A stretch of 64,000 nucleotides of DNA, from NCBI GenBank assembly GCA_964016885.1, contig OZ024742.1, positions 57,226,001 to 57,290,000 on the forward strand, given 5' to 3'. Origin of the DNA: Eledone cirrhosa. Taxonomy: Eukaryota. Positions 962 to 61,400 of this stretch are shown in pieces (position 1 is the first letter of the stretch; each line of letters opens with the position of its first letter). Under the pieces are notes generated by a model. It was not told where the DNA came from and searched no databases. It worked only from the letters and a program-made list of their open reading frames with translations. Both the position numbers and the translations under genes were made by a program.

Positions 962-1193
962 ATGAATGTATATATAGTGTATTTTGCAATACACTGTATG
1001 CTTAATTAAAAGCTTTTCGAAAACCTTATGCAATTGTTTTAGAGTAGTGACAGTCTCACTTACTTTAATTTTCAGCAAACAGGGGAGATAAAGCTGACAG
1101 AGCTCTGTTTCGCATTTCTTTATGCTTATCAAAGCTAACTACTCCTCCTCTTTGTTGAAAATCATGAATGTTTGATTCTCATAGAATTCTAGT
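962..1193 (-). mobile_element. Partial copy of hammerhead-bearing repeat family F2, flanked by (TA)n
   Basis: Reverse complement of 1508-1735. Also matches 49190-49415 and 61240-61400. Confidence 0.85.
1092..1136 (-). ncRNA. Type I hammerhead ribozyme, U3-A8 core variant (F2)
   Basis: Minus strand AGCT-TTGATAA-GCAT-aaagaa-ATGC-GAAA-CAGAGCTCT-GTC^-AGCT. Palindromic stem III ACAGAGCTCTGT. Confidence 0.8.
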
Positions 1194-1269
1194 ATATATA
1201 TATATATATATATATATATATATATATATATATATATATATATATATATATATATATATATATATATCG

Positions 1270-1408
1270 CTATATACAATATTAAATAAATGGAAAACTA
1301 TATTTATTTAATATTGTAAATATACTCCAAGTATTTGTCGAGTGCTTTTATATCAGTTATAAATATTTACTAGTTGTAACCCAACAATTTTAAATATAAC
1401 TTTACATA
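1270..1408 (+). repeat. Fragment of the F10/Naiad pseudo-LTR end, with a short inversion
   Basis: Matches the reverse complement of 36716-36810 (CTCCAA...GAGTGCTTT-ATATCAGTTATAAA...CCCAACAA). Confidence 0.6.
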
Positions 1409-1425
1409 TATCGCTATATATATAT

Positions 1426-1772
1426 ATCGCTATTTCAGAGCACCAATTCTAATTTTCAATTTCTGCTTGACCTGCCACCGCTCTGTATAATCAGTTACTG
1501 ATTATTACTAGAATTCTATAAGAATCAAACATTCATGATTTTCAGCAAACAGGAGGAGTAGTTAGCTTTGATAAGCATCAAAAAATGCGAAACAGAGCTA
1601 TGTCAGCTTTATCTCCCCTGTTTGCTGAAAATTAAAGTGAGACTGTCACTACTCTAAAACAATAGCATAAGGTCTTCGAAATGCTTTTAATTAAGCATAC
1701 AGTGTATTGCAAAATACAATATATATACATTCATATATATATCGCTATTTCAGAGCACCAATTCTAATTTTA
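1426..1772 (+). mobile_element. F2 element, ~315-nt monomer plus terminal direct repeat
   Basis: TATTTCAGAGCACCAATTCTAATTTT at 1431 and again at 1746. One hammerhead inside. Flanked by (TA)n. Confidence 0.85.
1564..1608 (+). ncRNA. Type I hammerhead ribozyme, U3-A8 core variant (F2)
   Basis: AGCT-TTGATAA-GCAT-caaaaa-ATGC-GAAA-CAGAGCTAT-GTC^-AGCT, enclosed by the long helix TTTTCAGCAAACAGG/CCTGTTTGCTGAAAA (1539-1631). Confidence 0.8.
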
Positions 1773-1773
1773 T

Positions 1774-2066
1774 TTATATATATATATATATATATATATA
1801 TATATATATATATATATATATATATATATATATATATATATATAATTCATGCATTTCTGTTTCTCTCTCTTTCTCACTCACTCTCTTTCACAGTCTCTCT
1901 CTCCCTCTCTCTCTCTCTCTCTCTCTCTCTCTCTCTCTCTCTCTCTTTCTCTCTTGGTACATATACGTGTGTGTGTGTGTGTGTCTGTGTCTGTGTCTGT
2001 GTCTGTGTCTGTGTGTGTGTGTGTGTGTGTGTGTGTGTGTGTGTGTGTGTGTGTGTGTGTGTGTGC
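1774..2066. repeat. Compound microsatellite (TA)n, (TC)n, (TG)n/(TGTGTC)n
   Basis: Direct inspection. Confidence 0.95.
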
Positions 2067-2381
2067 AACCATATAAATATATTCTGCTTCAAAATGCTAA
2101 TAGGTTATTATCCAGTATTTCATCAGATAGATCTTCCTTCAACAAAGTAACCTCTTATTATAGAAACCATTGAAATGTGGCGGATGTAAAGATTATATTA
2201 ATTAAATAAATAATATTAATTTTCAGAAACTTCTAAATAGAATATCTAAAATTGCGTGGTTTAATTCTCCATTCAGTACACATAAATCTAAGCATTTCTT
2301 ATTAGATAAACTCATGTAGAATCATAATAAATGATTTCCATCAGAAATATTCAATTTCACTTCAGCTCTATTAATAATATT

Positions 2382-2606
2382 GGTGGTGGATTGGCAGTAT
2401 CGGTAGAGCATCGGACAACATATGGTTTATGGCATAGAGTTACCCCTTTACGATCTGAGTTCAAATCCTACCGAGGTTAGCTTTGCTTTTCATCCGTACG
2501 GAGTCGATAAAATAAAGTAATGCACAGAGGTCGAATTAATCGACAACTCCCCCCCCCCCCCCCCCAAACATTGTTGGCCTTGTGCCTAAATCAGAAACCA
2601 ATATTA
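2382..2606 (+). mobile_element. tRNA-derived SINE (Octopus-type family)
   Basis: A-box-like TGGCAG, B-box GAGTTCAAATCC, body GAGGTTAGCTTTGCTTTTCATCC...GTCGATAAAATAAAGTA. About 9 copies in the window. Confidence 0.8.
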
Positions 2607-2639
2607 GGAATATTAAACCAGCGTCCATGAAGAATTTGA

Positions 2640-2847
2640 AGGCAGTGGATTGGCAGAATTATTTGAGAGTTGGACAAAATGTTTTACAGCATTTAGTTAA
2701 GGCTCTTTACCTTCTGAGTTCAAATGACACCGAGGTCAACTTTGTCTTCATCCTTCCGAGGTTCATATGTACCAGTCATGTACTGAGATGAATGTAACCG
2801 ACTTTCCCCTCTCCTCATATTGTTGACCTTATTAGAAATCAATATTT
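2640..2847 (+). mobile_element. tRNA-derived SINE, tandem second copy
   Basis: GAGTTCAAATGACACCGAGGTCAACTTTGTCTTCATCC. Confidence 0.75.
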
Positions 2848-59245: not shown

Positions 59246-59705
59246 TCAGGGTTTGGGAACCATGGACCACTCAAGCAGAGAGTTATTGTTTACGGAGGCA
59301 TATCCGGGTGTAGGAGGCTTATCCGGGATTTCTTGAAGGAATTTGTCCAAAGACTTCTGGAACTTGATGGGGTCTGTTTCTGTTTTAATGTGTTTTGGTG
59401 TAATGTTAAAGAGAGCGGGGCTAATTGAGGTGAAATAATTGTGCCGTATTGTTGTTATGAGATGCGAGTGAGATTTTTGTCGTTGGCAGATAGCACGGGG
59501 CCCAAGCCTTGGATGTATATTAAAGGTAATGCTAACATCATTTGGGCAAAGCTGATGGAATATTTTCCACATCATGCAAATAATGTAGCGCTTACGGCGA
59601 CGTTGGAGAGAATAAAGGTTGAGCTTTTCTAATCGACTCCAATAGTCAAGCCCTGTGAAGCCATCTATCTTTTTTGTAATCGATCTTTGGGGTGCTTCAA
59701 CTTTC
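59246..59705 (-). mobile_element. CR1/L2-group LINE 3' fragment
   Basis: KVEAPQRSITKKIDGFTGLDYWSRLEKLNLYSLQRRR, a typical CR1-group post-RT motif. Confidence 0.8.
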
Positions 59706-59974
59706 ATGATACTTTTTCGTGTGGGGAGACCCCAGCGGATAACATTATTCAAGGTGGGGTCGGGAAAAAGTGGAGAAGAGAAATATAACAGTGTGGATAT
59801 CTCTCGACTATATATATATATATATATATATATATAGAGAGAGAGAGAGAGAGAGAGAGAGAGAGAGAGAGAGAGAGAGAGAGAGAGAGAGAGAGAGAGA
59901 GAAGGAGAAATAAATTAATTAATTAAATAAAAATGGCGTAAACTTTACAATACAATAGGAGGAAACATAATAGT

Positions 59975-60016
59975 ACCACTGATGATGTCGCAGGTGTGTG
60001 ACGAAAGAACTTTGAT
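59975..60016 (+). ncRNA. Hammerhead (F3), slightly degenerate
   Basis: ACCA-CTGATGA-t-GTCGC-aggtgt-GTGAC-GAAA-GAA-CTT^-TGAT. Confidence 0.6.
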
Positions 60017-60418
60017 AGACTATATATAATATATATTTATATCTGTATTTTTAACCGTTGATCAATCACGAAAACCAACCCAAACCAAACAGTGAGTGTG
60101 ATGTGTTATTATTTCTGGGAATATTATAACAATATGACCCTCCCTCATAAATTACAGGGACTAACGCGAGTTTATGACTCCGTTAATTTATTTTGATATA
60201 TTTGTATTTATATATATATATATATGTATGTATGTATATAAATATATATATATGTGTGTGTGTGTGTGTGTGTGTGTGTGTGTGTGTGTGTGTGTGTGTG
60301 TGTGTGTGTGTGTGTGTGTGTGTGTGTGTGTGTGTGTGTGTGTGTGTGTGTGTGTGTGTGTGTGTGTGTGTGTGTGTGTGTGTGTGTGTGTGTGTGTGTG
60401 TGTGTGTGTGTGTGTGTG

Positions 60419-60627
60419 TCGTCAGTCGATCGACTTTTGTCAAATCGGACCGAGGAAACAATGTTTCCAATGGTCTTTCCAATTGCTAATACTATATATC
60501 AGTCGCAACTCCAGGTAGAAGGAGCAACGTGAAATAAAGTGTCTTGCTCAAGGACCTAACGCATCAACCGGTCCGGAAATAGTACTCACTACCTCACAAT
60601 TGCGAATCCAATTCTCTAACCACTCAG
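60419..60627 (-). mobile_element. tRNA-derived SINE with V/Meta-like conserved domain, copy 1
   Basis: AAAGTGTCTTGCTCAAGGA. Direct repeat of 60938-61155. Confidence 0.7.
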
Positions 60628-60778
60628 ATATATATATATATATATATATATATATATATATATATATATATATATATATATATATATATATATATATACA
60701 TATATATATATATATATATATATATATATATATATATATATATATATATATATATATATATATATATATATATATATA

Positions 60779-60813
60779 AACAATTGTTTCACTTTAGCGT
60801 ATCCTCAGCTCGG
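60779..60813 (-). ncRNA. Hammerhead truncated at its cleavage site (F12)
   Basis: CCGAG-CTGAGGA-tacgctaaagt-GAAA-C-AATT-GTT^ followed directly by (TA)n. Confidence 0.55.
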
Positions 60814-60937
60814 AAAGGGCATGGTTATGTGCGTTCGTACGGTTTTCCTTCCTGTTGGTTACTCTTGAAATATATATAATAAAATAAATATGGTTTTATA
60901 AATATAGTTTCCATTTATTTATATATATATGTATGTA

Positions 60938-61155
60938 TCGTCAGTCGATCGACTTTCGCCAAATCGGAGCGAGGAAACAATGTTTCCAAGGGTCTTTCCA
61001 ATTGCTAATACTATACATCGGTCGCAACTCCAGGTAGAAGTAGCAACGTGAAATAAAGTGTCCTGCTCAAGGACATAACGCATCAACCGGTCCGGAAATC
61101 GAACTCACAACCACGCGATTGCAAATCCAATTCTCTAACCACTCAGCCACACGCC
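60938..61155 (-). mobile_element. tRNA-derived SINE with V/Meta-like domain, copy 2
   Basis: Minus strand GTGGCTGAGTGGTTAG (A box) and GAGTTCGATTTCC (B box). Confidence 0.75.
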
Positions 61156-61210
61156 TTGAAATACGTTGTGTGTGTGTGTGTGATGGGGGGGGGGATATAT
61201 ATATATATAT

Positions 61211-61400
61211 ATTAGAATTGGCGCTCTGAAATAGCTATATATATATGAATGTATATATAGTGGATTTTGCAATACACTGTATGCTTAATTAAAAGCATTT
61301 CGAAGACCTTATGCTATTGTTTTAGAGTAGTGACAGTCTCACTTACTTTAAATTTTCAGCAAACAGGGGAGATAAAGCTGACAGAGCTATGTTTCGTACT
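61211..61400 (-). mobile_element. Truncated F2 copy that breaks inside hammerhead loop II
   Basis: Matches 49163-49337. Confidence 0.85.

Follow-up and report, generated by a model that had tools for sequence, protein, structure and literature searches.

The DNA analysed here is a 64,000-nt stretch of the Eledone cirrhosa genome (assembly GCA_964016885.1, contig OZ024742.1, positions 57,226,001 to 57,290,000 of the forward strand), referred to below as the window, with all coordinates counted from its first letter. It consists of AT-rich, microsatellite-dense animal DNA with many retroelement remains, and it harbors a short repeat family whose copies carry a hammerhead ribozyme motif with U3-A8 at the place of C3-G8, which is a Watson-Crick pair in the active core (PMC3884650). 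Its repeat landscape resembles that of octopus genomes. The five copies reported by a first-pass annotation are all present and are 87-96% identical to each other. Copy c1 (954-1194, minus strand) is the inverted arm of a first insertion, being 5'-truncated, without a tail and ending in (TA)n, and has the best-preserved core and helix III, while c2 (1418-1771, plus strand) is the main arm, in which a single unit of 315 nt is extended by an exact repeat of 39 nt (1418-1456 = 1733-1771) and followed by (TA)n. Copy c3 (49161-49554, minus strand), the tailed main arm of a second insertion, spans ~1.25 units and has a decayed helix III; the untailed inverted arm c4 (49555-49842, plus strand) lies head to head against it and has a partly broken helix II. 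Copy c5 (61211-61399, minus strand) represents a third insertion, which is tailed and lacks the catalytic core owing to a 5' truncation inside helix II. A 15-bp inverted repeat (61399-61433) is located right at this truncation point, and a nested fragment (1277-1406, unstranded) of a different, C3-G8-hammerhead-bearing repeat, 84% like 36695-36822 and with a 15-nt repeat on either side, lies between c1 and c2.

The monomer is non-coding, as had been proposed, with a length of 315 nt in c2; the period of c3 is 319 nt, or 305 nt across a 14-nt deletion. The unit has a GC content of 33%, its longest ATG frames comprise only 28 and 32 codons, and self-pairing is strong (z of -6.8 for the unit and -8.9 for the motif region). 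This low-GC, non-coding unit with a full-size type I hammerhead is in line with metazoan retrozymes that lack long terminal repeats (non-LTR retrozymes), which measure 150-450 bp. The family is present in high copy, with five copies in the 64 kb and 4,003, 4,126 and 4,318 contigs in three sequencing runs, these being contig numbers per run and not measured copy numbers. The copies show no obvious pair of LTRs (no search for a tRNA primer was made), and the 39-nt repeat of c2 was considered as an LTR and rejected. The motif pattern had no matches in metagenome contigs and none in viral contigs, and a bacterial promoter scan of the DNA, a type of scan that is not applicable here, gave nothing above chance.

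The core sequence UUGAUAA occurs in all four core-bearing copies, with U3 at 1132 (c1), 1568 (c2), 49353 (c3) and 49663 (c4), whereas c5 breaks off within helix II, so that its core is lost and neither U3 nor A8 can be read. In c2, the hammerhead occupies 1536-1634 (plus strand), comprising distal helix I (1536-1558/1613-1634), an internal loop of helix I (1559-1563/1609-1612), proximal helix I (1564-1567/1605-1608), the core (1568-1574, with A8 at 1573), helix II (1575-1588, 4 bp with a 6-nt loop), GAA (1589-1591), helix III (1592-1603, 4 bp in a 12-nt palindrome) and C17 (1604), with the cut predicted between 1604 and 1605. The hammerhead of c1 together with its extended helix I occupies 1066-1164 (minus strand), with A8 at 1127 and C17 at 1096. 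The UUGAUAA core, the GUC cleavage triplet (5/5 copies) and the covariation of helix II, which affects two of its four pairs (GCAU/AUGC in c1 and c2 versus GUAC/GUAC in c3), had all been described correctly by the first-pass annotation. Its reading of stem I as a ~15-bp helix has to be replaced by 4 bp, an internal loop, 4 bp, a 1-nt bulge and 18 bp, and its palindromic helix III is perfect in c1 and c4 (two of the four core-bearing copies), with private or minority mismatches in c2, c3 and c5. None of the copies is pristine: c1 is altered twice in loop 2 and twice in distal helix I, c2 deviates by a rare A at 1600, c3 by two helix III changes and c4 by its broken helix II.

The type I core (including G12, A13, A14, A15.1, U16.1 and H17) is found with U3-A8 covariation in 4/4 core-bearing copies; under a strict C3/G8 definition it is not. 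Across the three helices around the core, with helix I open, 130 of 136 cells are paired, against 37-52% in slid controls, and the G10.1-C11.1 position is G-C in three of the four copies and G-U in c4. U1559 in loop 1 and the 3' A1584 in loop 2 occur in all four copies with no variant listed; the loop 1 U and the last A of loop 2 are known as reverse-Hoogsteen partners of the tertiary contact (PMC2632901). Judged from its sequence, the motif is thus of the full-size type with a loop-loop signature. Membership among the minimal hammerhead ribozymes (min-HHRs) of Penelope-like elements (PLEs) was rejected because helix II has 4 bp, there is no extra base and the internal loop is defined, whereas min-HHRs have a helix II of 7-8 bp, an extra base between positions 9 and 10.1 and an ill-defined loop 1 (PMC4209133). 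Motifs of equal grade numbered 0 in 100 dinucleotide shuffles of the window, and a looser version of the strict grade gave 0.1 per shuffle (30 shuffles). The expectation that standard searches would miss the motif proved correct, since Rfam at its gathering score returned no match in the window. An E-value scan of 900-1800 placed Hammerhead_HH9 at 1554-1623 with 23.5 bits (E 0.0032; cut-off 52 bits), and loop 2 of c2 is identical, letter by letter, to the consensus loop of HH9.

The state of the family beyond the window was assessed with contigs from three runs (X1, X2 and X3) of one sample, aligned to c2 at a likeness of at least 85%; these runs were the carriers listed by the sequencing-run search, and none is listed as RNA. 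A change of A8 to G stays below 3% in all three runs, all six places with A>G being displayed and A8 not being among them, and a change of U3 to C reaches ~3% at most (under 3% in X2; in X1 and X3 it could only be an undisplayed row near 3%). G5, G10.1 and G12 are free of G>A, G>C and G>T rows, all such places being displayed, and no variant is listed at 3% for any catalytic-core position, in contrast to the variable helix interiors and loops. Allele shares match at the paired helix II positions 1576/1587 (13-15% vs 17%) and 1578/1585 (42-47% vs 38-50%), and likewise at the helix III positions 1595/1600 (6-10% vs 5-8%) and 1596/1599 (8-11% vs 6-9%). Pairing of 1596 with 1599 within one molecule is impossible, but the matched changes preserve the palindrome. 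The matched shares imply that U3-A8 is combined with no fewer than three types of helix II and, in a minority, with a second palindrome. Given the near invariance of U3 and A8 together with paired helix II and III alleles, U3-A8 is a property of the family and not a product of decay, and the presence of a real, selected hammerhead variant is well supported. The case that the first-pass annotation had itself named as fatal, a canonical consensus with these copies as decay products, can be dismissed for all copies with a likeness of 85% or more.

The arrangement of the copies provides a second line of evidence. At sites where the four longer copies are divided two against two, all five separate c1 and c2 from c3 and c4 and none supports either other split, indicating that each head-to-head pair derives from one template. 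The window therefore holds three insertions (c1+c2, c3+c4 and c5), and the four cores represent two lineages, not four independent witnesses. An inverted, 5'-truncated arm of PLE type from the same template is present in two of the three insertions, and both pairs have one tailed and one untailed end. A fold-back artefact was considered for the inverted pairs and rejected, as the arms of a pair differ by 5-6%. The terminus ATTCTAAT, which had been described as shared, is present on c2, c3 and c5 (3/5), while c1 and c4 stop 26-36 nt earlier; the 3' ends of all five copies run into TA repeats, as annotated. The supposed terminal direct repeat is better read as a PLE-type tail (1733-1768, plus strand), in which a 10-nt TA run and 26 unique nt extend from the short end (c1, c4) to the long end (c2, c3, c5). 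In 42-55 contigs per run the long end continues into (AT)n at 1768. The short end lies ~130-138 nt and the long end ~164 nt downstream of the predicted cut site. An inverted 5'-truncated arm, a one-sided tail of 30-40 bp and a (TA)n target are marks of EN+ PLEs (bioRxiv 2021.04.23.441226), and in an anole PLE the tail corresponds to the sequence that separates two internal start sites of reverse transcription downstream of the hammerhead (PMC11167929). Beyond the tail, c2 and c3 continue with the 315-nt unit again and with no open reading frame (ORF), the unit's own end lying upstream. Because a unit and not an ORF follows the tail, the element is non-autonomous; the reverse transcriptase (RT) plus GIY-YIG ORF that defines an autonomous PLE is missing from the unit.

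The explanation we favor, with a probability of roughly 0.72, is that the family is an element of retrozyme type, non-autonomous and present in high copy, which depends on the RT-endonuclease of a PLE for its copying and whose source copies carry a cleavage-competent U3-A8 type I hammerhead. In its behaviour it probably corresponds to a non-LTR retrozyme mobilised by a PLE. In the proposed mechanism, the template would be a more-than-unit transcript or a circle, and the PLE protein would nick (TA)n and prime reverse transcription at two sites ~30 nt apart; with these start sites 130-165 nt downstream of the cut site, two kinds of end would arise. The hammerhead would cut after GUC, releasing a unit-length RNA able to circularise.

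Folding models suggest how this cutting may be controlled. In the lowest fold predicted for the lone motif, helix II is retained but the helix I/core strand is engaged by the palindrome of helix III (4/4 copies), and the hammerhead fold lies 2.9-6.4 kcal/mol above this trap across models (3.5 with the majority allele). The lowest-energy fold predicted for 1530-1640, the c2 piece that the first-pass annotation had chosen for a cleavage assay, is not the hammerhead, and this piece is the worst predicted folder owing to the rare allele at 1600. U3 forms a G-U pair in the trap, where C3 would give G-C and deepen the trap by ~2.7 kcal/mol, and we propose that U3 is kept for this reason. With C3/G8 restored in the majority set, the monomer gap rises to 6.2 kcal/mol and the dimer gain falls to 4.1. 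In the majority set itself, a trans double hammerhead is predicted 9.5 kcal/mol below two monomers, and it is the lowest fold in six of eight allele sets, the exceptions being unmodified c2 and the set with T at 1595. In a comparison of 256 loop III sequences, the natural loop came 9th worst for the monomer fold, and its penalty for C3/G8 was the largest of all (2.96 vs a median of 1.30). Within the favored explanation, the most likely mode of cutting would be dimer- or protein-dependent, with efficient monomer cutting almost as probable. A naked single motif would be mostly trapped, and the trap could be opened by strand-swapped dimers formed via the 12-nt palindrome or by protein. Both modes have precedents, as dimer-dependent hammerhead cutting is known (PMC6155905, PMC6765202) and a PLE hammerhead has been found to cut only in the presence of protein (PMC11167929). 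U3-A8 motifs are said to be active in vitro in PMC3088659, which quotes another study.

A number of observations weigh against this interpretation. Tandem arrays are a defining trait of non-LTR retrozymes, and tandem loci with two motifs are found in none of the three window insertions, the longest of which spans 1.25 units with a head-to-tail junction present. No autonomous PLE with the same terminus, for which the first-pass annotation had proposed to look, emerged within the window, where matches to seven other repeat regions do not exceed 15 AT-rich nt. Insertion did not require cleavage in the one PLE studied in vitro (PMC11167929). The family-wide shares are unphased, relatives less than 85% alike lie outside the comparison, the sample is possibly the assembly source, and the variant table starts at 3% with six undisplayed rows that are bounded by the counts per kind of change. 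At 1595, a T allele (G>T, 10-13%) disrupts both the palindrome and one pair of helix III with no partner change, and covariation over the four window copies is not significant, its score being matched by 36 of 500 shuffles. Proximal helix I is made up of four standard pairs and continues with two U-U oppositions, compared with six pairs in canonical motifs. The energies come from nearest-neighbour models that ignore loop-loop contacts and Mg2+, and C3/G8 costs the monomer nothing in the allele set with the second palindrome. When two full units are modelled in cis as a 630-nt tandem, the double hammerhead (P 0.0055; single motif, P 0.0018) is 2.9 kcal/mol less stable than the lowest fold, so that only the trans models clearly favor the dimer.

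The closest alternative, which is possible at well under even odds and equals the second cutting mode within the favored explanation, retains the same element and lets the motif cut efficiently as a monomer, with loop contacts and Mg2+ beating the trap, as in coral retrozymes, and U3-A8 being a neutral founder swap. Its helix III of four pairs, compared with the one or two in dimer-dependent motifs (PMC4209133), the loop 2 and loop 1 U of tertiary-contact type and the rates of 0.8 and 0.1 per minute at which coral and mussel retrozyme monomers cut (PMC7229834) all favor this account, as does the recurrence of U3-A8 in unrelated families, including the motif at 34147 described below, where C3/G8 hardly alters the fold (P 0.36 vs 0.28). 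However, the trap is predicted in all four copies with a loop among the worst nine of 256, and the matched shares at 1596/1599 arise where no pairing is possible in the monomer. A bolder version of the favored explanation, which we consider rather unlikely as a whole, sees U3-A8 as the adaptive tuning of a monomer-off, dimer-on switch, in which the palindrome would lock the lone RNA and nucleate dimers, U3 would keep the lock weak and the insertion sites would directly prove copying by a PLE protein from two internal start sites; given the second, unrelated U3-A8 motif in the window, the genome would then hold a sizeable class of full-size motifs invisible to CUGANGA searches. If true, maturation of this retrozyme would require an encounter of two RNA molecules.

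It is improbable that the fold is kept merely as a protein-binding or template structure, or as a slow relic, with cleavage irrelevant to spread. Such an account would fit the anole PLE, whose main template is uncut RNA with 0 RNA-seq reads ending at the cut site (PMC11167929), the eight of nine Xenopus retrozyme dimers left uncut in vitro (bioRxiv 10.64898/2026.07.22.740005) and genomic ends lying 130-165 nt away from the cut site, but not a core devoid of listed variants at 3% amid variable helix interiors and loops, nor the association of A8 with U3, which is relevant only to the active core geometry. Even less probable is an origin of the copies from an autonomous PLE, as its 5'-truncated terminal repeats and not as a separate non-autonomous unit. 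The inverted arm, the tail, the (TA)n target and the hammerhead are all traits of PLE terminal repeats, and truncation is usual for PLE insertions (bioRxiv 10.64898/2026.07.22.740005); however, c2 and c3 flank the tail with the 315-nt unit and its own end instead of an ORF, X3 contigs bridge 1426-1553 and 1426-1565, and the motif has neither the long helix II nor the extra base that PLE minimal hammerheads possess. Finally, a canonical C3-G8 family with decayed local copies, or inverted pairs arising as assembly chimeras, could draw on the reduction of the four cores to two lineages and on the many palindromic arrays in the window, but the scarcity of A8>G in 3/3 runs and the divergence between the arms of a pair leave it a very slim prospect and largely refuted.

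The non-autonomous, PLE-copied element favored here resembles several known systems in part. The novelty of U3-A8 implied by the first-pass annotation does not hold, as natural cases are already present in PMC3088659 and PMC4209133. Perreault et al. 2011 (PMC3088659) gave the first natural report of U3-A8 covariation, as a rare variation, whereas here it characterises an entire abundant family. About 1,300 U3-A8 motifs were tied to Schistosoma mansoni PLEs in 2014 (PMC4209133), with UUGAUAA given in the supplement, and the present motif shares with the minimal hammerheads of the S. mansoni Cercyon PLE (Cervera and de la Pena 2014) the core swap, the heptamer, the palindromic helix III and the occurrence mostly as single motifs. 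Non-LTR retrozymes measure 150-450 bp, and PLEs have been proposed as their mobilisers (PMC7229834, 2020; bioRxiv 10.64898/2026.07.22.740005, Li et al. 2026). Like these metazoan elements (Cervera and de la Pena 2020; Li et al. 2026), the family has a small low-GC non-coding unit, a type I hammerhead with a 4-bp helix II and loop-loop signature, strong self-pairing, high copy, dispersed monomers and a proposed PLE link. Unlike them, it shows U3-A8, a 4-bp helix III inside a 12-nt palindrome, a proximal helix I of 4 bp plus U-U, no tandem array in the window, and an inverted arm with a tail, features not described for retrozymes in the portions of these papers that were consulted. The 2026 pipeline, which demands two complete tandem motifs, would class the present copies as monomers (bioRxiv 10.64898/2026.07.22.740005). 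With the Hydra and Neptune EN+ PLEs (Craig et al. 2021; Frangieh et al. 2024) it has in common the inverted truncated arm, the one-sided tail, (TA)n and a hammerhead upstream of the ends, but its unit lacks an RT-endonuclease ORF and any sequence match to the near-complete PLE and further PLE remnants of the window. A literature search that included few subscription journals and did not cover the supplement of PMC7229834 returned no U3-A8 full-size retrozyme, no cephalopod retrozyme and no tail-and-inversion anatomy on a retrozyme.

Other hammerhead-bearing and repetitive elements are widespread in the window. A second, unrelated U3-A8 type I hammerhead with GUC, present as a single window copy, is located at 34141-34247 (plus strand) and has a 6-bp helix I, a 6-bp helix II that carries a structured insert of 56 nt, and a 16-nt palindromic helix III; with short flanks the hammerhead is its lowest fold (P 0.36), its grade was reached in 0 of 100 shuffles, and it has no Rfam match. 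A weaker U3-A8 candidate at 19746 (minus strand), within the inverted repeat 19660-19847, has the core UUGAAAA, a 96-nt helix II domain and a palindromic helix III, the relaxed scan yielding 0.07 such matches per shuffle. A near-complete PLE at 25168-29087 (plus strand) has partial tandem repeats 98% identical, C3-G8 hammerheads at 25890 and 28924 with a 91-nt helix II domain, and a 710-aa frame (26264-28396) that combines RT with GIY-YIG and contains the motifs DKT and CxCX5C. These motifs match the Hydra clade, whose target is (TA)n (bioRxiv 2021.04.23.441226), and an assignment to the Neptune clade was dropped on this basis. The closest homologues of the protein are just 30-43% identical, the sole named one (1/25 matches) being from the cephalopod Argonauta hians at 38%; comparison with Pfam and with solved structures did not name it, and its PLE label stands on the motifs and a weak GIY-YIG match (E 0.012) in the homologue P0003. 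A palindromic tandem array (1-931) adjoins c1 on the left and contains a C3-G8 minimal hammerhead at 624 (plus strand), with a relative (76-83%) at 31762-32823. Six further C3-G8 minimal hammerheads with palindromic helix III, at 18589, 24068, 36905, 52435 and 62017 (all minus strand) and 39077 (plus strand), lie mostly right before TA repeats, bringing the C3-G8 motifs overall to nine in 64 kb vs 0.01 per shuffle. Inverted copies, 99% alike, occupy 36804-37211 and 38771-39178. Three diverged (73-84%) copies of LINE type with exonuclease/endonuclease, RVT_1 and zf-RVT domains lie in 5095-14427 and 41397-44980, and long palindromes also occur at 39341-39558, 40346-40803 and 50471-50708, one of them built from a SINE-like repeat that recurs at 2383-2507 and 47848-47985.

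Collectively, the U3-A8 family does not represent a new kind of system, and its additions to what is known are modest: a retrozyme motif of full size and loop-loop type carries U3-A8, an element of this sort shows the insertion anatomy of PLEs, and the folding models offer a rationale for U3 that can be tested. The mobiliser of animal retrozymes has so far been argued from co-occurrence and terminal-repeat similarity, and a short family with PLE-specific marks makes this claim testable using a purified PLE protein and a 315-nt template. The family also offers a natural case in which the double revertant may not rescue activity, for folding reasons. An amplified family fixed for U3-A8 indicates that the swap is compatible with spread, and censuses requiring CUGANGA or tandem copies would undercount such families.

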